From a virus: a stretch of 18,100 nt of DNA. The translations under genes were made by a program, and so were the position numbers. This document shows positions 688 through 18,100 of the stretch, one piece after another. The notes under the pieces are model-generated. The model saw only the letters and a program-made list of their open reading frames with translations, was not told where the DNA came from and searched no databases. The number at the start of each line of letters is the position of its first letter. The stretch's first letter is position 1. The stretch lies in the UHGV virus genome UHGV-0199914. One strand, 5' to 3'.

Positions 688-1117
688 TGCCGTCACGGTG
701 CTGAAAACTAACCCCGATATGCTGCGGATATTCGTGGATAACGGGAGTATTGCCTCCACGCTGGCGGCGTCGCTGTCATTCGAAAAGCGTTACACGCTCA
801 ATGTCATTGTGACCGACTTTACCGGTGATTTTGACCTGCTCATCGTGCCGGTGCTGGCGTGGCTGCGGGAAAATCAGCCCGACATCATGACCACCGACGC
901 AGGCCAGAAAAAGGGCTTCACGTTTTATGCAGACATCAACAATGACAGCAGCTTTGATATCAGCATCAGCCTGATGCTGACCGAGCGCACGCTGGTCAGT
1001 GAGGTGGACGGCGCACTGCATGTGAAGAATATCCCGGAACCCCCGCCGCCGGAGCCGGTCACCCGCCCGATGGAGCTTTATATCAATGGCGAACTGGTGA
1101 GCAAGTGGGATGAATGA
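650..1117 (+). CDS. R: tail completion protein R
   Basis: 155 aa, located immediately after the spanins. Sequence (MLKPDSLRRALTDAVTVLKTNPDMLRIF...) recognised as P2 gpR. AGGA lies 9 nt upstream of the ATG. Confidence 0.85.
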   Translation: MLKPDSLRRALTDAVTVLKTNPDMLRIFVDNGSIASTLAASLSFEKRYTLNVIVTDFTGDFDLLIVPVLAWLRENQPDIMTTDAGQKKGFTFYADINNDSSFDISISLMLTERTLVSEVDGALHVKNIPEPPPPEPVTRPMELYINGELVSKWDE

Positions 1118-1559
1118 GTTTAAGCGTTTTGAAGACCGACTGACCGGACTGATTGAGTCGCTGTCACCGTCAGGGCGTCGGCGACTGAGTGCAGAACTGG
1201 CGAAACGTCTGCGGCAGAGTCAGCAGCGCCGGGTGATGGCACAGAAAGCCCCGGATGGCACACCCTATGCGCCACGCCAGCAGCAGAGCGCCAGAAAAAA
1301 GACCGGTCGCGTTAAGCGAAAAATGTTTGCGAAACTTATCACCAGTCGTTTTTTGCATATCCGCGCCAGCCCGGAACAGGCATCAATGGAGTTTTACGGC
1401 GGAAAGTCACCGAAAATCGCCAGTGTGCATCAGTTCGGTCTGTCGGAAGAAAACCGGAAAGACGGTAAGAAAATTGATTATCCGGCGCGTCCTCTGCTCG
1501 GCTTTACCGGTGAGGATGTGCAGATGATTGAAGGGATTATCTCTAACCATCTAGAATAA
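1110..1559 (+). CDS. S: tail completion / virion morphogenesis protein S
   Basis: 149 aa, start overlaps the R stop (ATGAATGA). Sequence recognised as P2 gpS-like and the synteny fits. Confidence 0.85.
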   Translation: MNEFKRFEDRLTGLIESLSPSGRRRLSAELAKRLRQSQQRRVMAQKAPDGTPYAPRQQQSARKKTGRVKRKMFAKLITSRFLHIRASPEQASMEFYGGKSPKIASVHQFGLSEENRKDGKKIDYPARPLLGFTGEDVQMIEGIISNHLE

Positions 1560-1608
1560 AAACATAGTTAATCATCATTGGTGAAATCATTAGGGGGGCA
1601 ATCGCTTG

Positions 1609-1640
1609 TTGACTTGAAAATCGCGAAAAAAAATATTATA
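1609..1640 (+). promoter_or_regulatory. candidate sigma70 promoter for the cargo gene (-35 TTGACT 1609-1614; -10 TATTAT 1634-1639, 19-nt spacer)
   Basis: Consensus -35 hexamer and a 5/6 -10 hexamer in the AT-rich S/V intergenic region about 35 nt upstream of the 1675 ATG. RBS AAGGGA sits 6-7 nt before the ATG. The spacer is longer than optimal. Confidence 0.35.
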
Positions 1641-1674
1641 GATCATCTTTTTACACTAATCTTAAAGGGAATAT

Positions 1675-3201: not shown

Positions 3202-3218
3202 CACACAAAATATGCTGT

Positions 3219-3236
3219 TGTGTCAGCTATAGTACA
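3219..3236 (+). promoter_or_regulatory. TGT-N12-ACA dyad (Ogr/Delta-type late-activator site pattern) upstream of V
   Basis: TGT at 3219-3221 and ACA at 3234-3236 with a 12-nt spacer, matching the P2 late-promoter upstream element pattern. The geometry relative to the V start at 3284 is tighter than the usual dyad centred near -55, so assignment is tentative. Confidence 0.3.
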
Positions 3237-3283
3237 TAATGGGAGGTTTGCCGTGCTGCTTTCTTGGCGGCATCCTTCCCGTT

Positions 3284-3919
3284 ATGAACACTCTCGCAAA
3301 TATTCAGGAACTCGCGCGCGCACTGCGCAACATGATTCGTACCGGCCTTGTCGTCGAAACCAACCTTAAAGCCGGTCGCTGCCGTGTGCAGACCGGTGGC
3401 ATGTGCACCGACTGGCTTCAGTGGCTGACCCATCGTGCCGGACGTTCGCGCACATGGTGGGCACCTTCCGTGGGGGAACAGGTGCTGATTCTGGCTGTGG
3501 GCGGTGAACTCGACACGGCGTTCGTTCTGCCGGGGATTTATTCCGGCGATAACCCCGTGCCGTCTGCGTCGGCGGATGCCCTGCATATCCGTTTCCCTGA
3601 CGGGGCGGTGATTGAGTATGAACCCGAAACCAGTTCACTGACGGTAAGCGGAATTAAAACGGCCAGCGTGACGGCTTCTGATTTTGTTACTGCCACGGTG
3701 CCGGTGGTCACGGTGAAAGCATCAACCCGCGTCACCCTGGACACACCGGAGGTGGTCTGTACCAACAGGCTGATTACCGGCACGCTGGAAGTGCAGAAGG
3801 GCGGGACGATGAGCGGCAACATTGAACACACCGGCGGTGAACTCTCATCAAACGGTAAGGTACTGCATACCCATAAACACCCCGGCGACAGCGGCGGCAT
3901 AACCGGGAGTCCTTTATGA
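3284..3919 (+). CDS. V: baseplate spike / assembly protein V
   Basis: The ORF is open from 3239, but the recognisable gpV sequence begins at the internal ATG 3284 (MNTLANIQELARALRNMIRTG...), giving 211 aa, the size I recall for P2 gpV. The 15 upstream codons (MGGLPCCFLGGILPV) look like intergenic read-through. Confidence 0.8.
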   Translation: MNTLANIQELARALRNMIRTGLVVETNLKAGRCRVQTGGMCTDWLQWLTHRAGRSRTWWAPSVGEQVLILAVGGELDTAFVLPGIYSGDNPVPSASADALHIRFPDGAVIEYEPETSSLTVSGIKTASVTASDFVTATVPVVTVKASTRVTLDTPEVVCTNRLITGTLEVQKGGTMSGNIEHTGGELSSNGKVLHTHKHPGDSGGITGSPL

Positions 3920-4263
3920 CAGCGCGTTATCTCGGAATGAATCGCAGTAATGGCCTGACTGTCACTGACCTTGAGCATATCAGCCAGAGTATCGGCGATA
4001 TCCTGCGTACACCGGTCGGCTCACGGGTGATGCGTCGTGATTACGGCTCGTTGCTGGCATCAATGATTGACCAGCCGCAGACCCCGGCGCTTGAGTTGCA
4101 GATTAAGGTCGCCTGTTACATGGCGGTGCTGAAATGGGAACCCCGCGTCACCCTGTCATCCGTCACTACGGCGCGCAGTTTTGACGGGCGAATGACGGTC
4201 ACGTTAACCGGCCAGCACAACGACACCGGCCAGCCACTTTCGTTAACCATCCCTGTGAGTTGA
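3916..4263 (+). CDS. W: baseplate wedge protein W (gp25-like)
   Basis: 115 aa, ATGA overlap with the V stop; sequence and position match P2 gpW. Confidence 0.85.
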   Translation: MTARYLGMNRSNGLTVTDLEHISQSIGDILRTPVGSRVMRRDYGSLLASMIDQPQTPALELQIKVACYMAVLKWEPRVTLSSVTTARSFDGRMTVTLTGQHNDTGQPLSLTIPVS

Positions 4264-4267
4264 AACC

Positions 4268-5176
4268 ATGCCGATTATCGACCTGAACCAGCTACCCGCA
4301 CCGGATGTGGTCGAGAAGCTGGACTTTGAAACCATTCTCGCTGAACGCAAGGCGACACTGATTTCCCTTTACCCGGAAGACCAGCAGGAGGCGGTCGCCC
4401 GTACCCTGACGCTGGAATCTGAGCCTCTCGTCAAACTGCTGGAGGAAAATGCTTATCGTGAGCTTATCTGGCGTCAGCGTGTGAATGAGGCCGCACGGGC
4501 GGTGATGCTGGCCTGTACCGCCGGTAATGACCTTGATGTGATTGGTGCCAATTACAACACCACGCGCCTGACTATCACCCCGGCAGATGATTCGACCATT
4601 CCGCCGACACCGGCAGTGATGGAATCTGACACCGATTATCGTCTGCGTATTCAGCAGGCTTTTGAGGGCTTAAGCGTCGCCGGGTCGGTGGGAGCCTATC
4701 AGTATCATGGTCGCAGTGCCGACGGGCGTGTCGCGGATATCTCTGTCACCAGTCCGTCTCCGGCCTGCGTCACTATCTCTGTGCTGTCACGTGAAAATAA
4801 CGGTGTGGCATCCGAAGACCTGCTGGCGGCGGTGCGTAACGCCCTTAATGGCGAGGACGTCAGGCCGGTGGCCGACCGCGTGACCGTGCAGTCTGCCGCC
4901 ATTGTTGAATACCAGATAAACGCCACGCTTTACCTTTACCCTGGTCCCGAAAGCGAACCCATCCGCGCTGCCGCCGTGAAAAAACTGGAAGCGTACATCA
5001 CGGCACAGCACCGGCTGGGGCGCGACATCCGTCTGTCTGCCATTTATGCCGCTTTGCATGTGGAAGGCGTGCAGCGTGTCGAACTGGCTGCACCGCTGGC
5101 CGATATCGTGCTTAACAGCACGCAGGCGTCTTTCTGTACCGAATACCGCGTCGTGACCGGAGGCTCGGATGAGTGA
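4268..5176 (+). CDS. J: baseplate protein J (gp6-like)
   Basis: 302 aa, immediately after W, matching P2 gpJ in size and synteny. Confidence 0.85.
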   Translation: MPIIDLNQLPAPDVVEKLDFETILAERKATLISLYPEDQQEAVARTLTLESEPLVKLLEENAYRELIWRQRVNEAARAVMLACTAGNDLDVIGANYNTTRLTITPADDSTIPPTPAVMESDTDYRLRIQQAFEGLSVAGSVGAYQYHGRSADGRVADISVTSPSPACVTISVLSRENNGVASEDLLAAVRNALNGEDVRPVADRVTVQSAAIVEYQINATLYLYPGPESEPIRAAAVKKLEAYITAQHRLGRDIRLSAIYAALHVEGVQRVELAAPLADIVLNSTQASFCTEYRVVTGGSDE

Positions 5177-5699
5177 TTCGCGACTGCTGCCGACCGGCTC
5201 ATCACCGCTTGAAGTCGCCGCCGCAAAAGCCTGTGCGGAAATTGAAAAAACGCCGGTCAGTATTCGTGAGCTGTGGAACCCGGATACCTGTCCGGCAAAT
5301 CTGCTGCCGTGGCTGGCGTGGGCGTTTTCGGTCGACAGGTGGGATGAAAAGTGGCCGGAAGCGACAAAACGCGCCGTTATCCGCGATGCCTATTTCATCC
5401 ACTGTCATAAGGGCACTATAGGTGCAATCCGGCGTGTGGTGGAGCCGCTCGGCTATCTCATCAACGTGACGGAGTGGTGGGAAAACAGTGACCCGCCAGG
5501 CACTTTCCGGCTTGATATTGGTGTACTGGAAAGCGGCATCACAGAGGCAATGTATCAGGAAATGGAACGGCTGATTGCTGATGCCAAACCTGCAAGCCGC
5601 CACCTTATTGGCCTGAACATTACCCGGGACATTCCCGGCTATCTGTTCGCCGGTGGTGTGGCTTACGACGGCGATGTAATTACGGTTTACCCCGGATAA
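5169..5699 (+). CDS. I: baseplate / tail protein I
   Basis: 176 aa, overlaps the J stop by 8 nt; matches P2 gpI in size and synteny. Confidence 0.85.
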   Translation: MSDSRLLPTGSSPLEVAAAKACAEIEKTPVSIRELWNPDTCPANLLPWLAWAFSVDRWDEKWPEATKRAVIRDAYFIHCHKGTIGAIRRVVEPLGYLINVTEWWENSDPPGTFRLDIGVLESGITEAMYQEMERLIADAKPASRHLIGLNITRDIPGYLFAGGVAYDGDVITVYPG

Positions 5700-5709
5700 G
5701 TGAGGAATA

Positions 5710-7575
5710 ATGAGCACAAAATTCAGAACCGTTATCACCACTGCCGGTGCAGCAAAGCTGGCAGCGGCAACCGCACCGGGAGGGCGGAAGGTCAACATTA
5801 CCACGATGGCCGTCGGGGATGGCGGTGGTAAATTGCCTGTCCCGGATGCCGGACAGACCGGGCTTATCCATGAAGTCTGGCGACATGCGCTGAACAAAAT
5901 CAGCCAGGACAAACGAAACAGTAATTATATTATCGCAGAGCTGGTTATTCCGCCGGAGGTGGGCGGTTTCTGGATGCGTGAGCTTGGCCTGTACGATGAT
6001 GCGGGAACGTTAATTGCTGTGGCGAACATGGCTGAAAGTTATAAGCCTGCCCTTGCCGAAGGCTCAGGGCGTTCGCAGACCTGCCGCATGGTCATCATCG
6101 TCAGCAGTGTGGCCTCAGTGGCGCTGACCATTGACACCACAACGGTGATGGCAACGCAGGATTACGTTGATGACAAAATTGCAGAGCACGAACAGTCACG
6201 ACGTCACCCGGACGCCTCGCTGACCGCAAAAGGTTTTACTCAGTTAAGCAATGCGACCAACAGCACGTCTGAAACACTGGCCGCAACGCCGAAAGCGGTA
6301 AAGGCCGCCTATGACCTGGCTAACGGGAAATATACTGCACAGGACGCCACCACCGCGCGAAAAGGCCTTGTTCAGCTCAGTAGTGCGACTAACAGCACGT
6401 CTGAAACGCTCGCCGCAACGCCAAAAGCAGTAAAGACCGCCTATGACCTTGCTAACGGGAAATACACTGCACAGGATGCCACCACAGCGCGAAAAGGGCT
6501 TGTTCAGCTCAGTAGCGCCACCAACAGTGATTCGGAAACGCTGGCCGCAACACCAAAAGCGGTGAAGTCTGCCTATGACAATGCTGAAAAACGTCTTCAG
6601 AAAGATCAAAATGGCGCGGATATTCCTGATAAAAGATTATTCCTGCGCAATATTGGAGCAACAAATTCAACAACCATGTCTTTTAGTGGTGGTACAGGAT
6701 GGTTCAGGCTGGCAACTGTAACCATGCCACAGGCCAGTTCCGTGGTTTACATAAGTCTGATTGGTGGTGCTGGATATAATGTTAACTCCCCTATGCAGGC
6801 TGGTATATCTGAACTTGTTCTTCGTGCGGGAAATGGAAATCCAAAAGGTCTTACTGGTGCGTTATGGCGACGGACATCGGTTGGATTTACTAATTTTGCA
6901 TGGGTGAATACATCCGGTGATACCTATGATGTTTATGTTGAAATAGGTAATTACGCCACAGGTGTTAATATTCAGTGGGATTATACCAGTAACGCCAGCG
7001 TAACGATTCATACATCACCATCTTATACAGCGAATAAACCAACAGGCCTGACAGATGGAACTGTATATGTAATTTACAGTTCGCACATTAAACCGACTGC
7101 TGCTGATGTTGGGGCGTTGTCATTATCTGGAGGTCAATTGAATGGTGCACTGGGCATCGGAACATCCAGTGCTCTTGGCGGTAACTCGATTGTTTTGGGT
7201 GATAATGACACGGGCTTTAAACAAAATGGCGACGGTAATCTGGATGTTTATGCTAATAACGTCCATGTTATGCGCTTTGTCTCCGGTAGCATTCAAAGTA
7301 ATAAAACCATAAATATTACGGGGCGTGTTAATCCCACAGATTACGGTAACTTTGATTCCCGCTATGTCCGGGATATCCGGCTTGGTGGTGCTGCCACATA
7401 CAAACCTGCGAACAATGGCATGACATGGACACATCAGGCACCGTCCGGGTGTATATATTCCGGCATTATTGTTCAGGATACCGGCTCAAACTCTGCCGAT
7501 AACATTGGTGGCGTATATTACAGACCGGTTCAGAAATACATTAACGGGACATGGTATAACGTGGCACAGGTATAA
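5710..7575 (+). CDS. H: tail fibre protein H (mosaic: conserved N-terminus, tandem fibre repeats, divergent low-GC distal domain)
   Basis: 621 aa. N-terminus MSTKFRTVITTAGAAKLAAATAPGG is typical of P2-type gpH. It contains three tandem copies of a 44-aa fibre repeat, and composition shifts to AT-rich from about 6600 onward. Confidence 0.85.
   Translation: MSTKFRTVITTAGAAKLAAATAPGGRKVNITTMAVGDGGGKLPVPDAGQTGLIHEVWRHALNKISQDKRNSNYIIAELVIPPEVGGFWMRELGLYDDAGTLIAVANMAESYKPALAEGSGRSQTCRMVIIVSSVASVALTIDTTTVMATQDYVDDKIAEHEQSRRHPDASLTAKGFTQLSNATNSTSETLAATPKAVKAAYDLANGKYTAQDATTARKGLVQLSSATNSTSETLAATPKAVKTAYDLANGKYTAQDATTARKGLVQLSSATNSDSETLAATPKAVKSAYDNAEKRLQKDQNGADIPDKRLFLRNIGATNSTTMSFSGGTGWFRLATVTMPQASSVVYISLIGGAGYNVNSPMQAGISELVLRAGNGNPKGLTGALWRRTSVGFTNFAWVNTSGDTYDVYVEIGNYATGVNIQWDYTSNASVTIHTSPSYTANKPTGLTDGTVYVIYSSHIKPTAADVGALSLSGGQLNGALGIGTSSALGGNSIVLGDNDTGFKQNGDGNLDVYANNVHVMRFVSGSIQSNKTINITGRVNPTDYGNFDSRYVRDIRLGGAATYKPANNGMTWTHQAPSGCIYSGIIVQDTGSNSADNIGGVYYRPVQKYINGTWYNVAQV
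6229..6580 (+). repeat. three tandem in-frame about 132-bp direct repeats inside H (K-G-[FL]-[TV]-QLS-[NS]-ATNS-[TD]-SETLAATPKAVK-x-AYD motif units)
   Basis: Unit 1 at 6229-6360, unit 2 at 6361-6492, unit 3 from 6493 (diverges after about 6580). Units 1 and 2 are near-identical 44-aa blocks ending ...GKYTAQDATTAR. Confidence 0.85.
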
Positions 7576-7578
7576 TTT

Positions 7579-8106
7579 ATGCAGCATTTGATAAATATAA
7601 CAGCGGGGAATCCAAAAACGGTTGAACAATATCAATTGACAAAGGGTTTTGATGTTGTCTGGTTTTTTTCAGAAGATGGTAAGAACTGGTACGAAGAACA
7701 AAAGTATTTTGCTGATGACACGATAAAAATAGCGTACGACAAAGATAATATTATCCGCTATGTGGAAAAGGATGTGACAGCTATCAGACCAGATGGATTA
7801 AGTGTTGTTGAAGTGCCAGATATTACTGCTAACCGACGGGCGGACATTTCAGGGAACTGGATGTTTAAGGACGGCACAGTGATTAAACGAATTTATACGG
7901 CGGAGGAATTGCAGCAGCAGGCAGAAAATCGGAAAGCCAGACTTCTAGCAGATGCTGAATCCGTGATTTTGCCGCTGGAACGCGCGGTCAGGCTGAATAT
8001 GGCAACAGATGAGGAACGCAGCCGACTGGAGGTTTGGGAACGCTATAGCGTTCTGGTCAGTCGTGTGGATCCTGCGAATCCTGAATGGCCAGAAATGCCG
8101 CAATAA
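7579..8106 (+). CDS. G: tail fibre assembly chaperone G
   Basis: 175 aa immediately after H. The C-terminal part is conserved gpG-like and the N-terminal part is AT-rich, co-varying with the H tip. Confidence 0.8.
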
Positions 8107-8163
8107 GTTGTATGAGCTCTGGTGTGAGCTGACATATCTATGGCAAAGAGTAAAGCCTAATCT

Positions 8164-8195
8164 GACAGTCCGCTCTGTGCCATGAGCGGACTGTC
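8164..8195. terminator. perfect 12-bp inverted repeat (GACAGTCCGCTC / GAGCGGACTGTC, 8-nt loop); possible terminator between convergent G and the minus-strand cargo gene
   Basis: Stem at 8164-8175 and 8184-8195 read directly from the sequence. No clean U-tract on either strand, so function is uncertain. A second 8-bp palindrome AGATTTAC-GT-GTAAATCT follows at 8203-8220. Confidence 0.35.
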
Positions 8196-8390
8196 AATAA
8201 ACAGATTTACGTGTAAATCTTGAAGCTATACATATTTACTTTCAATGATAAATAAAAGAACCACCCCAAAATCACTGAAAGTATATTTTAACTAACCACC
8301 TGCAACTACTAACATTAATTTCACTCAACCTCAAAGAGTCGTAATTAAAATGATATGTATAGCAATTTGCCTCGATACGAATCATATGAA

Positions 8391-9089
8391 TTATATTTTT
8401 CCATGCTTTTCACCGTCAAATCGAGTCATGCTAGGATCAAGAAAATAAATCAAATCAATTAACGCATGTTGTATTCTGATTAGCCTTTCTTTATAAGGCT
8501 CGATATTTTTTGTCATATTTATCACTTCATTGTTTAAATCTAAAAAAAATGGTTCATTGACAAAGCAATTTTCCTTTGTGAAACCGCCGTAACCTATGCA
8601 ATCAAATCCAGCATCTGTTGATATCAACATCTTTTCCGCAATAGCTCTCTGCTCTCCTATGAAAAACATAAAATACTGACCAAAGGCGTCTGTTTGGATT
8701 AATGAGTTAATATTGTTCTGTAATCTAATAAACTCCCTCATTTTTTTATTTTTTTCTAGACTAAGGTATTGAATGTCTATGCGGGCAGCTTCTGCCCATG
8801 CAAAGAACTGGGAAAAAAGAAAAACCGTATTTTTGATAACATAATCTTGTTGGCGCTTACTCCCATTATGATAAAACTCTTCAATAAACCCTAATTCTAA
8901 TATGTTATAAATGCGGCTTTGTAAGTCTGAAGCTGAGCGAATTAACGGTTCAATATAGTACTGATGTTTTCTCCTTACATCCAGTGTTTCATTGAGCTTG
9001 TTTATTCTATTCTGATTATAGGTAGATATAGCAATAGAGATTATAGATATTGCACCACCAATAAGGCTTGAAATTAATGCCACACTCAT
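8391..9089 (-). CDS. hypothetical membrane-anchored protein, cargo at the P2 Z/fun position; function unknown (candidate defence / exclusion factor)
   Basis: 232 aa on the opposite strand to the tail operons. ATG with AGGA 8 nt upstream. N-terminal single transmembrane helix (SVALISSLIGGAISIISIAISTY), then a roughly 210-aa domain without motifs I recognise. Sits in an island of about 30% GC. Confidence 0.7.
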   Translation of the reverse strand: MSVALISSLIGGAISIISIAISTYNQNRINKLNETLDVRRKHQYYIEPLIRSASDLQSRIYNILELGFIEEFYHNGSKRQQDYVIKNTVFLFSQFFAWAEAARIDIQYLSLEKNKKMREFIRLQNNINSLIQTDAFGQYFMFFIGEQRAIAEKMLISTDAGFDCIGYGGFTKENCFVNEPFFLDLNNEVINMTKNIEPYKERLIRIQHALIDLIYFLDPSMTRFDGEKHGKI

Positions 9090-9911
9090 CTAAAAGTCCT
9101 TTGATTTTCTTGGTTAACAAAATGACATGGTTTTATTTAATGTCGCAGCAACTTAATAATACACCATGATATGATTATTATGGTGTGATTTTTTGCATCT
9201 GTAATCCATTACAAACAGATGCAAGGTATAACTTGTCTATTTTCAGTCAGAAAATTCGTAAACATCCAAAGTAGCCTCATCAAACTCTTAAAATTCTATA
9301 CATTTGAGTGTAAAGATTTTAAATCCAGCTGCATGGTATCGACTCATGTTTATTATATTTTTTATTTGTAATTAAAGGTTGCATTATTTTCGATAATAAA
9401 TCATCGCAAGATTGAAATATGATTTCACTTGATGCAATGTTTCATGTGGCCCAGCGATTTGAGTTACACCCAGCTGTACGGGTAATATAAATCAAATTGA
9501 TGAACTTTTGATACACTCCTCTCTCTTCATTACTTTATGTTTTTGCTCTCAAAAATATCTTGCTCTCTGAAAATTATTCTTTAAGTTCAAAGTCGAGGAC
9601 TGCATGAGTGTTAGATACAAAGCTAATATGTTGAAATGTTTTTCATCTCCCCATAACGGCATTATTATCTAAAATATTTACACAAATATAGAATCACCCC
9701 TTTAACGTAAACTAGGAATCAAGTTAACACCATTATATATATCATAAACATGATATTTTGTATATTTTTATCATTTAGCCTTGATTGTACAGGGCGTACT
9801 CTCAACGAAGTAGGGAAAGTCTGTTTTTCGCTCAAAGCTGGCTGTCAGATTTGATAGCATTTGGGCTATGTAAATTGTCAGTTGGAGAATGAGGGAGTAA
9901 AAATCAGGACA

Positions 9912-9938
9912 GGCGGGCGAATTGCCCGCCTTTTCTTT
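9912..9938 (+). terminator. rho-independent terminator (stem GGCGGGC / GCCCGCC, loop GAATT, then TTTTCTTT)
   Basis: GC-rich 7-bp stem at 9912-9918 and 9924-9930, immediately followed by a T-rich tract at 9931-9938 on the + strand. Located at the boundary between the AT-rich island and the FI upstream region. Confidence 0.6.
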
Positions 9939-9944
9939 ATCTGT

Positions 9945-10007
9945 TGTTTCATCCACTGACCAGCCAGGTCAAATAGCGTCTCATGTACTACCCAACGGAA
10001 AATAGTT
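9945..10007 (+). promoter_or_regulatory. candidate late promoter for FI: imperfect dyad TGT-N12-CCA at 9945-9962 and -10-like AATAGT at 10002-10007
   Basis: Partial match to the TGT-N12-ACA late-promoter element, centred about 55 nt upstream of a plausible start site about 25 nt before the FI ATG. One mismatch in the dyad; geometric inference only. Confidence 0.3.
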
Positions 10008-10034
10008 GCACCCATTAACCACGGAGTTAAACGG

Positions 10035-11225
10035 ATGAGTGACTATCATCACGGCGTGCAGGTGCTGGAGATTAACGACGGCACCCGCGTCATTTCCACC
10101 GTATCCACTGCCATTGTCGGCTTGGTCTGCACGGCCAGCGATGCGGATGCGGAAACCTTCCCCCTCAATAAACCTGTGCTGATTACCAATGTGCAGAGTG
10201 CAATTGCAAAGGCTGGTAAAAAAGGCACGCTGGCGGCATCGTTGCAGGCCATCGCCGACCAGTCAAAACCGGTCACCGTTGTCGTGCGTGTGGAAGACGG
10301 CACCGGCGACGACGAGGAAACGAAACTCGCGCAGACCGTTTCCAATATCATCGGCACCACTGACGAAAACGGTCAGTACACCGGACTGAAAGCCCTGCTG
10401 GCGGCGGAGTCGGTAACCGGTGTTAAGCCGCGCATTCTCGGTGTGCCGGGACTGGACACCAAAGAGGTTGCCGTCGCACTGGCATCAGTCTGTCAGAAGC
10501 TGCGCGCTTTCGGGTATATCAGCGCATGGGGCTGTAAAACCATTTCCGAGGTGAAAGCCTACCGCCAGAATTTCAGCCAGCGTGAGCTGATGGTCATCTG
10601 GCCGGATTTCCTCGCATGGGATACGGTTGCCAGTACCACCGCCACCGCGTATGCCACCGCCCGTGCGCTGGGTCTGCGCGCTAAAATCGACCAGGAGCAG
10701 GGCTGGCATAAAACTCTGTCCAACGTCGGGGTAAACGGTGTTACCGGCATCAGCGCATCTGTATTCTGGGATTTGCAGGAGTCCGGCACCGATGCTGACC
10801 TGCTTAACGAGTCAGGCGTCACAACGCTGATTCGCCGCGACGGTTTCCGCTTCTGGGGTAACCGTACCTGCTCTGATGACCCGCTGTTCCTCTTTGAAAA
10901 CTACACCCGCACTGCGCAGGTGCTGGCCGACACGATGGCTGAGGCGCACATGTGGGCTGTGGATAAGCCCATCACCGCAACGCTGATTCGCGACATCGTT
11001 GACGGCATTAATGCCAAATTCCGTGAGCTGAAAATAAACGGCTATATCGTGGATGCGACCTGCTGGTTCAGCGAAGAATCCAACGATGCGGAAACCCTCA
11101 AGGCCGGAAAACTGTATATCGACTACGACTATACACCGGTGCCTCCTCTCGAAAACCTGACCCTGCGCCAGCGTATTACCGATAAATACCTGGCAAATCT
11201 GGTCACTTCGGTTAACAGCAATTAA
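10035..11225 (+). CDS. FI: contractile tail sheath protein FI
   Basis: 396 aa, GGAG 9 nt upstream, followed by the tube gene; sequence recognised as P2 gpFI-like. Confidence 0.9.
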   Translation: MSDYHHGVQVLEINDGTRVISTVSTAIVGLVCTASDADAETFPLNKPVLITNVQSAIAKAGKKGTLAASLQAIADQSKPVTVVVRVEDGTGDDEETKLAQTVSNIIGTTDENGQYTGLKALLAAESVTGVKPRILGVPGLDTKEVAVALASVCQKLRAFGYISAWGCKTISEVKAYRQNFSQRELMVIWPDFLAWDTVASTTATAYATARALGLRAKIDQEQGWHKTLSNVGVNGVTGISASVFWDLQESGTDADLLNESGVTTLIRRDGFRFWGNRTCSDDPLFLFENYTRTAQVLADTMAEAHMWAVDKPITATLIRDIVDGINAKFRELKINGYIVDATCWFSEESNDAETLKAGKLYIDYDYTPVPPLENLTLRQRITDKYLANLVTSVNSN

Positions 11226-11237
11226 GGAGCCTGACCG

Positions 11238-11756
11238 ATGGCAATGCCGCGCAAACTCAAGTTAATGAACGTCTTTCTGAACGGCTACAGCTATCAGGGC
11301 GTTGCAAAGTCCGTCACGCTGCCAAAACTGACCCGTAAGCTTGAAAACTATCGCGGTGCGGGGATGAACGGCAGCGCACCGGTAGACCTCGGCCTTGATG
11401 ACGATGCGCTGTCAATGGAGTGGTCGCTCGGGGGCTTCCCGGATTCGGTTATCTGGGAGCTTTACGCCGCAACCGGCGTGGATGCCGTGCCGATTCGTTT
11501 TGCTGGCTCTTACCAGCGCGACGATACCGGCGAAACGGTGGCCGTCGAGGTGGTCATGCGTGGACGTCAGAAAGAAATCGACACCGGCGAGGGCAAACAG
11601 GGAGAAGACACCGAGTCGAAAATCTCCGTGGTCTGCACCTATTTCCGGCTGACGATGGACGGTAAGGAGCTGGTCGAAATCGACACCATCAACATGATTG
11701 AGAAGGTGAACGGCGTCGACCGGCTGGAGCAACACCGCCGCAATATCGGCCTGTGA
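11238..11756 (+). CDS. FII: tail tube protein FII
   Basis: 172 aa, directly downstream of the sheath gene with RBS AAGGAG; matches P2 gpFII. Confidence 0.9.
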   Translation: MAMPRKLKLMNVFLNGYSYQGVAKSVTLPKLTRKLENYRGAGMNGSAPVDLGLDDDALSMEWSLGGFPDSVIWELYAATGVDAVPIRFAGSYQRDDTGETVAVEVVMRGRQKEIDTGEGKQGEDTESKISVVCTYFRLTMDGKELVEIDTINMIEKVNGVDRLEQHRRNIGL

Positions 11757-11764
11757 TTTTCATC

Positions 11765-11785
11765 CGGTCAGCCTGGCTGACCGGT
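11765..11785 (+). promoter_or_regulatory. GC-rich hairpin between FII and E (CCGGTCAG-CCTGG-CTGACCGG)
   Basis: Perfect 8-bp stem read from the sequence, with no U-tract. Possible attenuator or RNA-stability element between the tube and chaperone genes. Confidence 0.3.
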
Positions 11786-11812
11786 TAACCCCGATTCATA
11801 AGTGAGAAAACC

Positions 11813-12088
11813 ATGAACAAAGAAAATGTGATTACCCTGGACAATCCGGTCAAGCGTGGTGAGCAGGTTATCGAACAGGTCACTCTGATGAAACCCAGTG
11901 CGGGGACGCTGCGCGGTGTCAGTCTGGCTGCGGTCGCAAACTCAGAAGTCGATGCACTGATTAAGGTGCTGCCGCGCATGACGGCACCGATGCTGACCGA
12001 GCAGGAAGTCGCCGCGCTGGAACTGCCTGACCTTGTGGCGCTGGCCGGTAAGGTGGTCGGTTTTTTGTCGCCGAACTCGGTGCGGTAA
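11813..12088 (+). CDS. E: tail assembly chaperone E
   Basis: 91 aa, located between the tube and tape-measure genes. A slippery heptamer lies near its 3' end. Confidence 0.85.
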   Translation: MNKENVITLDNPVKRGEQVIEQVTLMKPSAGTLRGVSLAAVANSEVDALIKVLPRMTAPMLTEQEVAALELPDLVALAGKVVGFLSPNSVR

Positions 12089-12240
12089 CGTTCCCGAAAA
12101 ATCTGTCGGTCGATGACCTGATGGCGGATGTGGCAGTGATATTTCACTGGCCGCCATCAGAACTGTATCCCATGAGCCTGACCGAACTCATCACATGGCG
12201 CGAAAAGGCGCTCCGGCGAAGCGGAAACACGAATGAGTAA
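11813..12240 (+). CDS. E': tail assembly chaperone E+E' made by programmed -1 ribosomal frameshift
   Basis: Slippery T_TTT_TTG at 12061-12067 in the E frame. The -1 frame stays open from there to TAA at 12238-12240, overlapping the T start at 12233. Same arrangement as the known P2 E/E' (and lambda G/GT) frameshift. Confidence 0.65.
12061..12067 (+). other. -1 frameshift slippery heptamer T_TTT_TTG
   Basis: 0-frame codons GGT TTT TTG, with the heptamer in X_XXY_YYZ register; the downstream -1 frame is open for 58 codons. Confidence 0.65.
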
Positions 12241-14680
12241 CAATGTAAAATTACAGGTATTGCTCAGGGCTGTTGACCAGGCATCCCGCCCGTTTAAATC
12301 CATCCGTACAGCGAGCAAATCGCTGTCGGGGGATATCCGGGAAACACAAAAATCACTGCGCGAGCTGAACGGTCAGGCATCCCGTATTGAGGGATTTCGC
12401 AAGACCAGTGCACAGCTCGCCGTGACTGGTCATGCACTTGAAAAGGCTCGGCAGGAAGCCGAAGCCCTTGCCACACAGTTTAAAAACACCGAACGTCCGA
12501 CCCGTGCTCAGGCGAAAGTGCTGGAATCCGCAAAGCGTGCGGCGGAGGACTTACAGGCGAAATATAACCGCCTGACAGACTCCGTTAAACGCCAGCAGCG
12601 GGAACTGGCCGCTGTGGGAATTAATACCCGCAATCTTGCACATGATGAGCAGGGACTGAAAAACCGTATCAGTGAAACCACCGCACAACTTAACCGTCAG
12701 CGCGACGCGCTGGCGCGTGTCAGTGCGCAACAGGCAAAACTTAACGCAGTAAAACAGCGTTATCAGGCCGGAAAGGAACTGACCGGAAATATGGCCTCAG
12801 TAGGCGCTGCCGGTGTGGGGATTGCTGCTGCGGGAACGATGGCCGGTGTTAAGCTGCTGATGCCCGGTTATGAGTTTGCGCAGAAAAACTCAGAATTGCA
12901 GGCCGTGCTCGGAGTGGCAAAAGACTCCGCCGAAATGGCCGCACTACGCAAGCAGGCGCGCCAGCTCGGCGACAATACCGCAGCCTCGGCAGATGATGCA
13001 GCCGGTGCACAGATTATCATTGCGAAAGCGGGTGGAGATGCTGCGGCTATTCAGGCGGCAACGCCGGTCACGCTGAATATGGCACTGGCGAATCAGCGGT
13101 CGATGGAAGAAAACGCGCAACTGTTGCTGGGGACTAAGGCATCCTTTCAACTGTCAAATGATGATGTCAGCCATGTGGGCGACGTGTTGTCGGCAACGAT
13201 GAATAAGTCGGCGGCTGATTTTCAGGGACTCAGTGATGCACTGACTTACCTCGGTCCGGTTGCGAGGACGGCAGGTGTAAGTCTTGAGCAGGCAGCGGCC
13301 ATGACAGGTGTGCTGCATGACAATAACATCAGGGGGTCAATGGCGGGGACGGGGAGCAGTGCCGTTGTCACCCGATTACAGGCACCGACTGGAAAAGCAT
13401 GGGATGCACTCAAAGAGCTTGGCGTGAAAACCTCGGACAAAAAGGGAAATATGCGTCCGTTGTTCACCATTCTGAAAGAGATTCAGGCCAGCTTTGATAA
13501 ACACAAGCTGGGAACGTCTCAGAAGGGGGAATACCTTAAAACCATTTTTGGTGAGGAAGCCCTGAAATCAGCGAACGTTTTACTGGCAGCGGCAGCAAGC
13601 GGAAAACTGGATAAGCTGACCGCCACGCTGAAAGCCTCGGACGGTAAAACGGAAGAGCTGGTTAAAATCATGCAGGATAATCTCGGCGGTGACTTTAAGG
13701 AGTTTCAGTCTGCTTATGAGGCGGTGGGGACTGACCTGTTTGACCAGCAGGAAGGCGCACTGCGTAAGCTCACGCAGACGGCCACAAAGTATGTGTTAAA
13801 ACTCGACGGCTGGATCCAGAAAAACAAATCACTGGCGTCAACCATCGGCATCATTGTCGGTGGTGCACTGGCACTGACTGGCATCATTGGTGCCATTGGC
13901 CTCGTAGCCTGGCCGGTTATCACCGGCATCAATGCCATCATCGCGGCAGCAGGCGCAATGGGGGCAATCTTCACGACGGTTGGCAGTGCTGTTATGACCG
14001 CCATCGGGGCGATTAGCTGGCCGGTTGTGGCTGTGGTGGCTGCCATTGTCGCCGGGGCGTTGCTTATCCGTAAATACTGGGAGCCTGTCAGCGCATTCTT
14101 TGGTGGTGTGGTTGAAGGGCTGAAAGCAGCATTTGCGCCGGTGGGGGAGCTGTTCTCGCCACTGAAACCGGTGTTTGACTGGCTGGGCGAAAAGTTACAG
14201 GCCGCGTGGCAGTGGTTTAAAAACCTGATTGCCCCGGTCAAAGCCACCCAGGACACCCTGAACCGTTGCCGTGATACTGGCGTCATGTTCGGGCAGGCAC
14301 TGGCTGACGCGTTGATGCTGCCGCTTAATGCGTTCAACAAACTGCGCAGCGGTATTGACTGGATACTGGAAAAACTCGGGGTTATCAACAAAGAGTCAGA
14401 CACACTTGACCAGACCGCCGCAAGGACTCATGCCGCCACGTATGGCACCGGTGGTTATATTCCGGCGACCAGCTCTTATGCAGGCTATCAGGCTTATCAG
14501 CCGGTCACGGCACCGGCTGGCCGCTCTTATGTGGACCAGAGTAAAAACGAATATCACATCAGCCTGACGGGTGGTACTGCGCCGGGGACACAGCTTGACC
14601 GCCAGTTACAGGATGCGCTCGAAAAATACGAGCGGGATAAACGTGCGCGCGCCCGTGCCAGCATGATGCATGACGGTTAA
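12233..14680 (+). CDS. T: tail tape measure protein T
   Basis: 815 aa with an N-terminal coiled-coil-rich region and a central Gly/Ala-rich hydrophobic block; position after E/E'. Size matches P2 gpT. Confidence 0.9.
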   Translation: MSNNVKLQVLLRAVDQASRPFKSIRTASKSLSGDIRETQKSLRELNGQASRIEGFRKTSAQLAVTGHALEKARQEAEALATQFKNTERPTRAQAKVLESAKRAAEDLQAKYNRLTDSVKRQQRELAAVGINTRNLAHDEQGLKNRISETTAQLNRQRDALARVSAQQAKLNAVKQRYQAGKELTGNMASVGAAGVGIAAAGTMAGVKLLMPGYEFAQKNSELQAVLGVAKDSAEMAALRKQARQLGDNTAASADDAAGAQIIIAKAGGDAAAIQAATPVTLNMALANQRSMEENAQLLLGTKASFQLSNDDVSHVGDVLSATMNKSAADFQGLSDALTYLGPVARTAGVSLEQAAAMTGVLHDNNIRGSMAGTGSSAVVTRLQAPTGKAWDALKELGVKTSDKKGNMRPLFTILKEIQASFDKHKLGTSQKGEYLKTIFGEEALKSANVLLAAAASGKLDKLTATLKASDGKTEELVKIMQDNLGGDFKEFQSAYEAVGTDLFDQQEGALRKLTQTATKYVLKLDGWIQKNKSLASTIGIIVGGALALTGIIGAIGLVAWPVITGINAIIAAAGAMGAIFTTVGSAVMTAIGAISWPVVAVVAAIVAGALLIRKYWEPVSAFFGGVVEGLKAAFAPVGELFSPLKPVFDWLGEKLQAAWQWFKNLIAPVKATQDTLNRCRDTGVMFGQALADALMLPLNAFNKLRSGIDWILEKLGVINKESDTLDQTAARTHAATYGTGGYIPATSSYAGYQAYQPVTAPAGRSYVDQSKNEYHISLTGGTAPGTQLDRQLQDALEKYERDKRARARASMMHDG

Positions 14681-14694
14681 GGAGGTGACGAAAA

Positions 14695-15174
14695 ATGATG
14701 CTCGCGTTAGGTATGTTTGTTTTTATGCGCCAGACGCTGCCACACCAGACCATGCAGCGTGAATCAGATTATCGCTGGCCGTCAAATTCCCGTATCGGTA
14801 AACGGGATGCCTACCAGTTTCTCGGTGTGGGTGAGGAAAACATGACGCTTGCCGGTGTGCTTTATCCCGAACTGACCGGCGGAAAGCTGACGATGACCAC
14901 GCTCAGGCTGATGGCAGAGGAAGGCCGGGCTTGGCCGTTGCTGGATGGCACCGGCATGATTTACGGCATGTATGTCATCAGCAGGGTGAGTGAAACAGGG
15001 AGTATTTTCTTTGCAGACGGCACACCCCGGAAAATTGATTTTACGCTGTCGCTCACCCGCGTTGATGAATCACTGGCCGCGCTTTATGGCGATATCGATA
15101 AACAGGCGGAATCGCTCATCGGTAAAGCTGGCAGTATGGCGACCAGATTCACGGGTATGACGGGGGCGGGATAA
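14695..15174 (+). CDS. U: tail protein U
   Basis: 159 aa, strong RBS (AAGGAGGTGA) upstream; synteny and size match P2 gpU. Confidence 0.85.
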   Translation: MMLALGMFVFMRQTLPHQTMQRESDYRWPSNSRIGKRDAYQFLGVGEENMTLAGVLYPELTGGKLTMTTLRLMAEEGRAWPLLDGTGMIYGMYVISRVSETGSIFFADGTPRKIDFTLSLTRVDESLAALYGDIDKQAESLIGKAGSMATRFTGMTGAG

Positions 15175-16337
15175 TGCTGGATGCACTGACATTTGATGCA
15201 GGCAGTACGCTGACGCCGGATTACATGCTGATGCTCGACAACAGGGATATTACCGGCAATATCAGCGACCGTCTGATGAGCATGACTCTGACGGATAACC
15301 GGGGCTTTGAGGCTGACCAGCTTGATATTGAACTGAACGATGCCGACGGGCAGGTAGGGCTACCGGTTCGTGGCGCTGTCCTGACGGTGTATATCGGCTG
15401 GAAAGGTTTTGCCCTGGTATGCAAAGGGAAATTTACCGTTGATGAGGTTGAACACCGGGGCGCACCGGATGTGGTCACCATCCGCGCCCGGAGTGCAGAT
15501 TTTCGCGGGACGCTCAATTCCCGCCGTGAAGGCTCCTGGCATGACACCACGCTCGGTGCGATTGTTGAGGCGATAGCCTCCCGTAACAGGCTGGAAGCCA
15601 GTGTCGCGCCGTCACTGGCAGGAATTAAAATCCCGCACATCGACCAGTCGCAGGAGTCTGATGCGAAATTCCTGACCCGTCTTGCAGAACGCAACGGCGG
15701 TGAGGTGTCGGTAAAAATGGGAAAACTGTTGTTTCTCAAAGCGGGGCAGGGGGTGACGGCCAGCGGTAAAAAAATCCCGCAGATTACCATCACCCGCAGC
15801 GACGGCGACCGTCATCATTTTGCGATTGCTGACCGTGGAGCTTACACCGGCGTAATGGCAAAGTGGTTACACACCAAAGACCCGAAGCCGCAAAAGCAGA
15901 AGGTAAAACTGAAACGCAAAAAGAAAGAAAAACACCTGCGCGCACTGGAGCACCCGAAAGCGAAACCGGTCACGCAGAAGAAAGCGCCAAAAGTACCGGA
16001 AGCGCGCGAAGGTGAATACATGGCCGGTGAAGCTGACAACGTTTTTGCCCTGACTACGGTATATGCCACGAAAGCACAGGCCATGCGCGCCGCTCAGGCG
16101 AAGTGGGATAAACTGCAACGGGGCGTTGCGGAGTTCTCCATCAGCCTTGCCACTGGTCGTGCTGATATTTACACGGAAACACCGGTCAGAGTGTCAGGCT
16201 TTAAGCGCGTCATAGACGAGCAGGACTGGACAATCACTAAGGTGACACATTTTCTGAATAATAGCGGCTTCACGACGTCCCTGGAGCTTGAGGTCAGGCT
16301 TTCTGATGTGGAGTACGAAACAGAAGATGATGAGTAA
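15174..16337 (+). CDS. D: tail protein D
   Basis: 387 aa, start overlaps the U stop. Contains a Lys-rich low-complexity segment (KPQKQKVKLKRKKKEKH); size matches P2 gpD. Confidence 0.85.
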   Translation: MLDALTFDAGSTLTPDYMLMLDNRDITGNISDRLMSMTLTDNRGFEADQLDIELNDADGQVGLPVRGAVLTVYIGWKGFALVCKGKFTVDEVEHRGAPDVVTIRARSADFRGTLNSRREGSWHDTTLGAIVEAIASRNRLEASVAPSLAGIKIPHIDQSQESDAKFLTRLAERNGGEVSVKMGKLLFLKAGQGVTASGKKIPQITITRSDGDRHHFAIADRGAYTGVMAKWLHTKDPKPQKQKVKLKRKKKEKHLRALEHPKAKPVTQKKAPKVPEAREGEYMAGEADNVFALTTVYATKAQAMRAAQAKWDKLQRGVAEFSISLATGRADIYTETPVRVSGFKRVIDEQDWTITKVTHFLNNSGFTTSLELEVRLSDVEYETEDDE

Positions 16338-16418: not shown

Positions 16419-16637
16419 ATGTTTCATTGTCCTTTATGCCAGCATGCCGCACATGCGCGTACAAGCCGCTATATCACTGACACGACAAAAGAGCGTTATC
16501 ACCAGTGTCAGAACGTGAATTGCAGCGCCACGTTCATCACTTATGAGTCGGTACAGCGATACATCGTGAAGCCGGGAGAAGTCCACGCCGTAAGACCGCA
16601 CCCGTTGCCGTCAGGGCAGCAAATTATGTGGATGTAA
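16419..16637 (+). CDS. ogr: late gene transcription activator Ogr (zinc-finger)
   Basis: 72 aa from the internal ATG 16419 (MFHCPLCQHAAHARTSRYITDTTKERYHQCQNVNCSATF...), with the Cys4 pattern CxxC...CxxxxC. GAGG lies 8 nt upstream. The track ORF starts further upstream at a TTG (16356), which I consider spurious. Confidence 0.85.
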   Translation: MFHCPLCQHAAHARTSRYITDTTKERYHQCQNVNCSATFITYESVQRYIVKPGEVHAVRPHPLPSGQQIMWM

Positions 16638-16649
16638 TTACAAACAGGA

Positions 16650-16674
16650 AGCCCCTCAGTCGAGGGGCTTTTTT
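16650..16674 (+). terminator. rho-independent terminator after ogr (AGCCCCTC-AGTC-GAGGGGCT then TTTTTT)
   Basis: Perfect 8-bp GC-rich stem with a 4-nt loop, followed by a T-run, 13 nt after the ogr stop. Confidence 0.8.
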
Positions 16675-16738
16675 GTCGATGTGGTCAATGTGTGGACGTG
16701 ACCAGAAATAAATCCTTTTATTTCATTGTATTACGCGT

Positions 16739-16765
16739 AAAAAATAAGCCCGTGTAAGGGAGATT
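16739..16765. other. probable attR core (AAAAAATAAGCCCGTGTAAGGGAGATT), prophage/host junction
   Basis: Matches the 27-bp P2 att core as I remember it. Lies just past ogr, the last gene at the right prophage end, and coincides with the terminator end of cyaR. Exact boundaries are not verifiable without the attL copy. Confidence 0.5.
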
Positions 16766-16825
16766 ACACAGGCTAAGGAGGTGGTTCCTGGTACAGCTAG
16801 CATTTTATGGGTTATGTTTTTCAGC
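16739..16825 (-). ncRNA. cyaR: CRP-activated Hfq-dependent sRNA CyaR (RyeE)
   Basis: The reverse complement reads GCTGAAAAACATAACCCATAAAATGCTAGCTGTACCAGGAACCACCTCCTTAGCCTGTGTAATCTCCCTTACACGGGCTTATTTTTT, which I recognise as E. coli CyaR, including the CCUCC-containing seed loop and a terminator hairpin with a U-run. It lies between yegQ and ogr, as in E. coli K-12 (yegQ-cyaR-ogrK). Confidence 0.75.
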
Positions 16826-16859
16826 GAAACGGATGATAACCTTAATAAATACAGCTGTA

Positions 16860-16875
16860 TGTGATCGGTTTCTAA
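16860..16875 (-). promoter_or_regulatory. candidate CRP half-consensus site (TGTGA-N6-TCTAA) at class II spacing upstream of cyaR
   Basis: TGTGA at 16860-16864 and a degenerate second half at 16871-16875. Centre is about 42 nt upstream of the inferred cyaR 5' end (16825). A -10-like TATCAT (minus strand) lies near 16831-16836. Confidence 0.35.
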
Positions 16876-16909
16876 GAATTTTCCATCCGGGAAAAATAAT
16901 CGAAATTAA

Positions 16910-18100
16910 TCACTTACCGTGGGGATTACGCGTGGTTTCCCCGGAGAAATTACGCATCAGCAGCGCGTAATTGAGCTCAAGATCCTGCGGGACCGGGAGC
17001 CACACAGTATAACCATCGCCTGGTGCTATCGGCATAGCTTCGCCTTTGGCGTTTTCCATGTGCTCAAGGGTAAAATTAATGTTGCCTTGCGGCGTCATCA
17101 GCTCAAGGCTGTCGCCAACGGAGAATTTATTTTTCACCGCTACCGCCGCGAGGTCCCCCTTGCGCTCACCGGTAAACTCACCAACAAACTGCTGGCGGTC
17201 AGAAACTGAATAACCGTATTCGTAGTTCTGATAATCGTCGTGAGTATGACGACGCAGGAAACCTTCGGTATAGCCACGATGCGCCAGACCTTCCAGAGTT
17301 TCCAGCAGGCTGGTATCGAACGGTTTTCCCGCAGCGGCGTCATCGATAGCTTTGCGGTAAACCTGTGCGGTGCGTGCACAATAGTAGAAAGATTTGGTAC
17401 GACCTTCGATTTTCAGCGAATGCACGCCCATTTTGGTCAGGCGTTCTACATGGGCGATGGCGCGCAGATCTTTCGAGTTCATGATGTAAGTGCCGTGCTC
17501 ATCTTCAAACGCGGTCATATACTCGCCCGGACGCTGGGCCTCTTCGATCATAAACACTTTGTCGGTTGGTGCGCCGATACCCAGCGTCGGCTCAACATTT
17601 TGCACCGGAATCGGCTCGTACTTGTGTACGATGTTGCCAACATCATCTTCTTTCCCTTCCTGGACGTTGTACTCCCAGCGGCAGGCGTTGGTGCAGGTGC
17701 CCTGGTTCGGGTCGCGCTTGTTGATATAGCCAGAGAGCAGGCAGCGACCGGAGTAGGCCATGCACAGCGCGCCGTGAACGAAGATCTCGATCTCCATATC
17801 CGGCACCTGATTGCGGATCTCTTCAATCTCTTCCAGCGACAGCTCGCGAGAGAGGATCACGCGGGTCAGGCCCATTTGCTGCCAGAATTTCACCGTCGCC
17901 CAGTTCACGGCGTTAGCCTGCACCGAAAGGTGGATCGGCATTTCAGGGAAGTGCTCACGCACCAGCATAATCAGCCCTGGATCGGACATAATCAGCGCAT
18001 CCGGCCCCATTTCCACCACCGGTTTCAGGTCACGGATAAAGGTTTTCAGCTTGGCGTTGTGCGGTGCAATGTTGACCACGACATAAAACTTTTTCCCCAG
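16910..18100 (-). CDS. yegQ: host peptidase U32-family protein YegQ (partial; N-terminus beyond the window edge)
   Basis: The minus-strand ORF is open to the window edge (...LGKKFYVVVNIAPHNAKLKTFIRDLKPVVEMGPDALIMSDPG...). Sequence recognised as E. coli YegQ; about 55% GC, host-like. The GTG at 18077-18079 used by the ORF track is internal, not the true start. Confidence 0.85.
   Translation of the reverse strand: MGKKFYVVVNIAPHNAKLKTFIRDLKPVVEMGPDALIMSDPGLIMLVREHFPEMPIHLSVQANAVNWATVKFWQQMGLTRVILSRELSLEEIEEIRNQVPDMEIEIFVHGALCMAYSGRCLLSGYINKRDPNQGTCTNACRWEYNVQEGKEDDVGNIVHKYEPIPVQNVEPTLGIGAPTDKVFMIEEAQRPGEYMTAFEDEHGTYIMNSKDLRAIAHVERLTKMGVHSLKIEGRTKSFYYCARTAQVYRKAIDDAAAGKPFDTSLLETLEGLAHRGYTEGFLRRHTHDDYQNYEYGYSVSDRQQFVGEFTGERKGDLAAVAVKNKFSVGDSLELMTPQGNINFTLEHMENAKGEAMPIAPGDGYTVWLPVPQDLELNYALLMRNFSGETTRNPHGK

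Follow-up and report, generated by a model that had tools for sequence, protein, structure and literature searches.

The attR junction of a P2-family prophage at the 3' end of the small RNA gene cyaR, and a one-base polymorphism of the host site

How is the 3' end of a small RNA gene shared between a prophage and its host, and what becomes of the gene once the phage is in place? The question is raised by the 272 nt (16638-16909) that separate the stop codon of ogr (16637) from that of yegQ (16910) in an 18,100-nt stretch of DNA catalogued as the virus genome UHGV-0199914 (the whole stretch is referred to below as the window). We hold it to be nearly certain that this interval is the attR of a P2-family prophage inserted at the primary P2 site of Escherichia coli, which is formed by the last 27 bp of cyaR. 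We take this primary attachment site to be the one called locI in the older P2 literature.

Insertion of P2 at cyaR (ryeE) is already published, and the feature is ordinary and common. In the E. coli W genome paper, Wphi2 (P2), K-12 ogr-D' and P2*B are all entered under the insertion site 'cyaR RNA' (PMC3032704, Table 2), and Bobay et al., citing Wassarman 2001, describe E. coli ryeE as 'previously known to be targeted by phages' (PMC3603311). A P2-specialist review states that P2-type integrases integrate 'between other genes' (PMC3448106); from this wording, the view of the sRNA gene as the target is published yet not universal. The only increment over published knowledge is a polymorphism of six or seven A's at the edge of the core, together with the one-base change in the CyaR tail that goes with it.

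The junction between phage and chromosome

To the left of the interval lies ogr (16419-16637, plus strand), which encodes the 72-residue zinc-finger activator of P2 late genes (Pfam Ogr_Delta, 1.1e-21) and is collinear with the annotated P2 ogr, with five nucleotide differences. To the right, the minus strand carries the 3' part of yegQ (trhP; 16910-18100), a peptidase U32 family tRNA hydroxylase gene that runs off the end of the window. Its ORF (16910-18079, minus strand) matches Pfam Peptidase_U32 (3.4e-89) together with the C-terminal domain, and yegQ/trhP is annotated at this position in all matching E. coli genomes. Within the interval, AAAAAATAAGCCCGTGTAAGGGAGATT at 16739-16765 on the plus strand is an exact match (27/27) to the core of P2 attP, annotated as attP or 'Int attP core' at 24356-24382 of the P2 record AF063097. 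This is the segment that phage attP and bacterial attB have in common and in which Int exchanges strands; the window holds its attR copy. Both the 27-bp core and the K-12 remnant discussed below were reportedly described by Barreiro and Haggård-Ljungquist in 1992.

In AF063097, the Int P-arm site, the IHF site and the ogr terminator lie to the left of the attP core, and the Cox site, the P' arm and int lie to its right. When P2 attP (24293-24496) is compared with the window, the core and the Int P-arm site are identical and the IHF site and ogr terminator are collinear, whereas cyaR stands in place of the P' arm and int, as expected for attR. The Int arm-type site of the P arm (TCGATGTGGTCAATGTGTGGACGTGACC, 16676-16703, plus strand) is identical to the 'Int, P arm' site of P2 (24293-24320) and holds two TGTGGnC direct repeats; the published consensus of the P2 arm repeat is tgTGGaCa (PMC3448106). 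The rho-independent terminator of ogr and the F operon (16648-16671, plus strand) and the IHF site of attP, which is kept in attR (16707-16740, plus strand), were transferred from the P2 annotation at 24265-24288, with an ungapped offset, and at 24324-24357, respectively. On the opposite strand, the terminator scan also recovers the ogr hairpin as a terminator-like site with a weak T-rich tail (16670-16649). The part of the phage arm that adjoins the core (about 13-14 nt, up to 16738) carries five substitutions relative to P2, all at 16726-16735, and shows no difference from the K-12 remnant. Over its final eight nucleotides (TTACGCGT), the arm agrees with the bacterial flank TTATGCAT at six of eight positions, so that the similarity of attP and attB in this phage lineage reaches slightly past the 27 bp.

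The junction was resolved by a four-way alignment of the window with P2 attP, the K-12-type remnant and an unoccupied E. coli chromosome. Up to the left edge of the core, the window is collinear with P2 attP (P arm, ogr terminator and ogr); past the core, in cyaR and yegQ, it is collinear with unoccupied E. coli chromosomes and with the ogrK remnant of K-12. The core itself is identical in all four sequences and is the sole segment that phage and empty-site sequences have in common. Megablast searches place the same boundaries: phage genomes with the core lose their match at 16765, and unoccupied E. coli genomes begin to match at 16731 or 16739 and continue at 97-100% identity. Sequence left of 16739 thus aligns with P2-family attP arms and sequence right of 16765 with unoccupied chromosomes; the phage P arm (16676-16740) is present on the left side of the core only, the right side having no phage homology, and the switch from phage to chromosomal homology coincides exactly with the core edges.

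The K-12 cryptic remnant (D'-ogrK-attR) has the same 27-bp core, P arm, ogr, cyaR and yegQ as the window, and its ogrK-yegQ spacer, taken from a K-12-type O16:H48 strain, differs from the 272-nt interval at two positions only (16641 and 16851). The remnant stops inside gene D, whereas the arm in the window continues through a full tail and lysis set. The first-pass annotation had recognised a P2 att core at 16739-16765, a prophage integrated at the 3' end of cyaR in the order yegQ-cyaR-attR-ogr, with yegQ upstream of cyaR, and a K-12 site that holds only ogrK, and had proposed an alignment to the K-12 yegQ-cyaR-ogrK region and to P2 attP. That alignment gave the expected recombinant pattern, and the rest is likewise borne out: the core matches the AF063097 annotation in full, the ORF from 16910 onward is YegQ/TrhP, and K-12-type strains keep only D'-ogr-attR here.

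Established P2 biology and the site annotations of AF063097 suggest how the junction would have arisen. With IHF on the P arm, the tyrosine integrase of P2 would recombine the attP core with the identical 3' end of cyaR, leaving cyaR beside yegQ under its own CRP-dependent promoter at one end of the prophage and, at the other, an attL beside int with a promoterless 27-bp duplicate of the cyaR end. We infer that Int made the junction, that the left arm exists in the source genome and that CyaR is expressed normally there. The right boundary of the prophage is fixed at 16739-16765, with cyaR intact in the source lysogen; this is a textbook phage-host junction, correctly annotated.

The late arm, its cargo and related prophages

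The window from 1 to 16337 (plus strand) is the late right arm of a P2-family (Peduovirus) prophage, running from lysis through tail genes to gene D, as judged by PHROGs, megablast and gene order. PHROGs matches include the spanin, tail terminator, tail completion, baseplate, tail fibre, sheath, tube and tape measure proteins, U and a gpD-like protein, and the genes follow the P2 late order (lysis, R, S, V, W, J, I, H, G, FI, FII, E, T, U, D, ogr). The same order is annotated in two E. coli prophages, GDAR2-2 among them. At the nucleotide level, the region around ogr is 96-99.8% identical to Peduovirus genomes, the late arm also matches E. coli P2-like prophages, and among the complete E. coli genomes of the collection the closest match reaches 90% coverage and 96.3% identity. 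That a full tail, lysis and ogr arm is present, as had been claimed from the sequence alone, is confirmed by P2-type ORFs with full-length PHROG matches.

Two cargo insertions interrupt the late arm, at 1675-3201 and 8391-9089. The ORF at 1675-3201 (plus strand, 508 aa) lies between S (tail completion) and V (baseplate), at the position of P2 orf30, a spot that holds other genes in related prophages. It has an N-terminal AAA ATPase domain and, at the C-terminus, a TIR_2 match of 27.6 bits against a cut-off of 28 bits; its best PADLOC match is the candidate defence family PDC-S59 (1.5e-19). Judged by these matches, it is probably anti-phage cargo in a known variable spot of P2. The ORF at 8391-9089 (minus strand, 232 aa) occupies the Z/fun variable locus between G (tail-fibre assembly) and FI (sheath). 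A Pfam search with this ORF gave no match, and PADLOC gave a weak one to RTasTM, a DRT-associated membrane protein (4.8e-7). Between this ORF and FI, 945 bp (9090-10034) have no sizeable ORFs. In GDAR2-2, the homologue of the 232-aa ORF is annotated as 'lysogenic protein' and has the same gap beside it. The early region of GDAR2-2, the closest related prophage, has a further variable spot (8446-12435 of the extracted locus) with two reverse-transcriptase genes and a 'retron Ec48 family effector'; the corresponding part of the prophage falls beyond the window.

Since the window begins within the lysis genes, int, C, cox, B, A, the head genes and attL are out of sight, and a second copy of the 27-bp core is absent from the 18.1-kb window even when up to three mismatches are allowed, a result that does not speak against a prophage. 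Related lysogens show what lies at the other end. In GDAR2-2 the order is yegR, core, int, early, head and tail genes, ogr, core, cyaR, yegQ, with exact copies of the core at 2004-2030 and 36172-36198 of the extracted locus, about 34 kb apart. The layout is repeated in strain 504237, with cores at 7113-7139 and 40799-40825 of the extracted locus; in both lysogens the second copy of the core lies beside int. We surveyed 5,426 complete E. coli genomes for these junctions. The attL junction was found in 753 of them, and at least the full D-ogr-cyaR-yegQ arrangement in 727, so that roughly one E. coli genome in seven has a prophage at this site; ogr joined to cyaR-yegQ, with or without full gene D, occurs in 1,130.

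With the left end of the prophage outside the window, the arm could also belong to a defective remnant, larger than K-12 ogr-D' but without int and the early region. K-12-type strains are a precedent, in that they keep a truncated arm at the same junction and differ so little from the interval, and among the 1,130 genomes with ogr beside cyaR roughly 400 lack full gene D and have a remnant only, these being largely K-12-type. We nevertheless consider a remnant unlikely: all late genes from lysis to ogr are open, both related lysogens examined are complete, and the near equality of the D-ogr and attL counts means that most D-ogr arms come with a left end. It is scarcely credible that the core match reflects chance or a generic likeness among terminators, with the phage arm brought next to cyaR by, for example, illegitimate recombination. 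An identity of 27 bp has zero chance expectation (none of 200 shuffles matched the core), the breakpoints of phage and host homology both fall on the core edges, and the same junction, with a matching attL, recurs in hundreds of genomes; the four-way alignment, the identity to the P2 core and the shuffles together refute this reading. Integration by Int at the cyaR end stands as the preferred account.

The terminator and promoter of cyaR

A single Rfam family was found in the 18.1-kb window, namely CyaR_RyeE (RF00112), which covers 16742-16827 of the minus strand with the full model aligned (positions 1-85 of 85; 100.7 bits, gathering score 47; E=1.7e-19). Over the 87 nt from 16739 to 16825, the window and the cyaR of the K-12-type O16:H48 strain do not differ. 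On this evidence and on its fold, we annotate 16739-16825 (minus strand) as cyaR (ryeE), the gene of the 87-nt Hfq-dependent, CRP-activated sRNA. It reads from 16825 to 16739, directly downstream of yegQ and on the same strand, a layout shared with annotated E. coli genomes. The predicted fold comprises the seed hairpin, an 11-bp terminator hairpin and a UAUUUUUU tail (z=-3.0). By its 100% identity to the K-12-type gene, the RNA would be expected to be expressed and to regulate its targets in an Hfq-dependent manner.

The Rfam structure line, the MFE fold and the terminator scan agree on an intrinsic terminator at 16739-16774 (minus strand). Its 11-bp stem is formed by 16774-16764 and 16757-16747 around a loop at 16763-16758, and the UAUUUUUU tail follows at 16746-16739. 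Apart from nine bases of the 5' arm, which are host-only, everything in it falls within the att core: the last two nucleotides of that arm, the loop, the 3' arm in full and the U tract. Integration thus rebuilds the cyaR terminator, and because attP and attB are identical over 27 bp, recombination anywhere within the core restores it exactly. In the proposed mechanism, loop, 3' stem arm and T tract would all come from the phage copy of the core, and with them the recombinant cyaR would keep an intact terminator and an unchanged 87-nt product. The first-pass annotation had described a CyaR-like sRNA at 16739-16825 on the minus strand, its terminator end formed by the core and regenerated on integration; the gene proves to be authentic cyaR, and the other two statements are correct.

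Replacement of the 3' end is the usual strategy of integrases that target tRNA, tmRNA and sRNA genes. Phage 186 integrates in a tRNA-Ile gene and Fels-2 and SopE-phi in ssrA (PMC3448106), and Salmonella phages integrate at ryeB/sdsR (PMC3603311, PMC3333887). In all of these, as in the window, the core spans the terminal hairpin and the tail, and the gene is restored. In contrast to tRNA-like targets, the target here is the terminator of an Hfq-dependent sRNA and the core is short (27 bp). Closest to the present case are Wphi2 of E. coli W and P2*B of E. coli B, P2-type prophages in the same sRNA gene that differ in cargo; the likeness follows from their listing in PMC3032704.

The pattern TGTGA-N6-TC(A/T)(A/C)A occurs once in the window, as TGTGATCGGTTTCTAA at 16860-16875, upstream of cyaR. 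This sequence is predicted from the motif to be a CRP-type site (TGTGA-N6-TCTAA) in class II position: its centre (16867.5) lies 42.5 nt upstream of G16825, and the distance is 41.5 nt for a transcript that begins one base earlier. The hexamer TATCAT at 16833-16838 (minus strand), read from the sequence at -13 to -8 from G16825, is the likely -10 element of the cyaR promoter. The distance of about 42 nt that had been noted for a CRP-like half-site therefore stands (41.5-42.5 nt), but the term half-site does not, as two complete half-sites are present.

Scanning one genome per species with a cyaR pattern gave 120 enterobacterial loci, 118 of them with enough upstream sequence. In 114 of these 118 species, the corresponding position upstream of cyaR carries a motif of the form T-N-N-(G/T)-A, N6, TCACA. 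The first half-site is TTAGA or TAAGA in every upstream hit; the half-sites are fixed and the six-base spacer is variable, which is the pattern of a functional protein-binding site. This conservation indicates that the site upstream of cyaR is functional, and it agrees with the published control of CyaR by cAMP-CRP (PMC5861431, PMC3333887).

Host haplotypes and cyaR in other species

Unoccupied E. coli sites come in two haplotypes that differ at the left edge of the core. The six-A haplotype reads ...GGTGACCAGGGATAGGGCTTATGCAT (GCAT) and then the core, the seven-A haplotype ...GGTTACCAGAGATAGGGCTTATGCATA (GCATA) and then the core, and two SNPs close by are linked to this polymorphism. Before the core, the phage arm has ...ACGCGT at its end, which gives six A's. 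Strain 504237 shows what follows when such a phage enters a seven-A host: its attL has seven A's and its attR, on the cyaR side, has six. The cyaR side of a seven-A host thus takes the six of the phage, and the encoded U run of CyaR is shortened from seven to six. In evenly spaced sampled rows, which give rough values only, the seven-A type accounts for about 27-30% of both empty sites and attL junctions and six-A hosts for roughly 70%; attL rows that align ungapped over 2-81 are the seven-A attLs, about 27% of the sampled rows. We rejected the idea that seven-A hosts are barred from lysogeny, as the share of about 27% among sampled attL rows speaks against it and 504237 confirms it to be wrong. 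Similarly, BL21(DE3) was considered as a differently occupied site and rejected, the assembly examined having an empty seven-A site. The yegQ side of the window matches six-A and seven-A strains equally well and fits a host of either haplotype.

About a quarter of natural hosts would accordingly lose one U of the CyaR tail upon lysogenisation, and six-A and seven-A hosts form a clean natural pair for effects of U-tail length on termination and Hfq loading. The 'reference' CyaR of K-12 is already the phage-joined (attR) form. Nearly all CyaR work has used K-12, where cyaR is in this form, and this includes the study on which we draw next for Hfq binding and terminator read-through. According to that study, efficient Hfq binding requires a poly(U) tail of at least seven U's; in a plasmid assay, it measured 41% intrinsic read-through at the CyaR terminator (PMC9765468). 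The first-pass annotation had raised a subtle change of CyaR termination or stability in the presence of the prophage as a possibility. These values, the existence of two haplotypes, the loss of one U in 504237 and the replacement of the DNA downstream of the tract (ATGCATAAGCCC before integration, ACGCGTAATACA after it) could be taken to mean that integration measurably changes CyaR, by way of a shorter U tail, termination efficiency, Hfq binding or read-through antisense into ogr. We think such a change improbable. In six-A hosts, the larger group, integration alters neither the core nor the U tract nor the base that follows it (A), leaving the mature RNA unchanged, and of the next eight bases past the tract six are identical. 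The K-12 reference itself is an attR form, and the ogr terminator hairpin stands between cyaR and ogr on the minus strand; read-through from cyaR would meet this hairpin, with its weak T tail, before reaching ogr. Restoration of cyaR by the phage core remains the reading that we prefer.

Among the same 120 loci, three genomes of Kluyvera and a single record labelled Enterobacter hormaechei share the exact P2 core at cyaR with E. coli. P2-type arms directly 3' of cyaR, with the IHF site GAAATAAAAGGATTTATTT and the Int repeat ...GTCCACACATTGACCACATCGA, are present in at least eight other enterobacterial species, among them Citrobacter youngae, Buttiauxella, Enterobacter, E. albertii and further Enterobacteriaceae, and in three of the arm-bearing species ogr lies within 1.5 kb. 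In each species, the core matches the local cyaR terminator (ACGCAGGCTTATTTTTT, for example). P2-type arms with host-matched cores in at least eight species make cyaR a family-wide target. In Salmonella diarizonae, a short GCGTGTAATC stretch equals the start of the Citrobacter arm.

Across the 120 species, the 3' arm of the cyaR terminator, which the core covers, has 18 variants and the host-only 5' arm has 27, in counts that ignore kinship. Several 5' arms pair with one and the same 3' arm through wobbles or mismatches. For instance, the U·G pair of E. coli is a C·G pair in Kluyvera georgiana, with the same core and 3' arm; between the cyaR terminators of E. coli and E. albertii, only the 3' arm differs. 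Two speculative ideas may be added, which as a pair we regard as a long shot. Beyond the restoration of cyaR, the 3' half of its terminator may in effect belong to P2-family phages, which would make it uniform, as might be suggested by the variant counts, by the resetting of the U tail to the length of the phage and by the arm-like segment at empty sites described below. In addition, the leaky terminator of a CRP-driven gene faces ogr, and read-through could yield a cAMP-dependent antisense RNA against the late activator.

Finally, some empty E. coli sites carry a 31-bp segment resembling the P2 Int arm, 48 bp to the left of the core (2949-3008 in locus L006 and 2941-3000 in locus L003). The segment, TCGATGTGGTCAATG-GAAGACGGTGACCAG, has a local alignment score of 38, compared with a mean of 14.8 and a maximum of 31 for shuffled sequences; ahead of it stands AAGGGAGATT, which repeats the final 10 bp of the core. 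From its sequence, the segment looks like a fossil of an older P2-type integration within what is now an empty attB.
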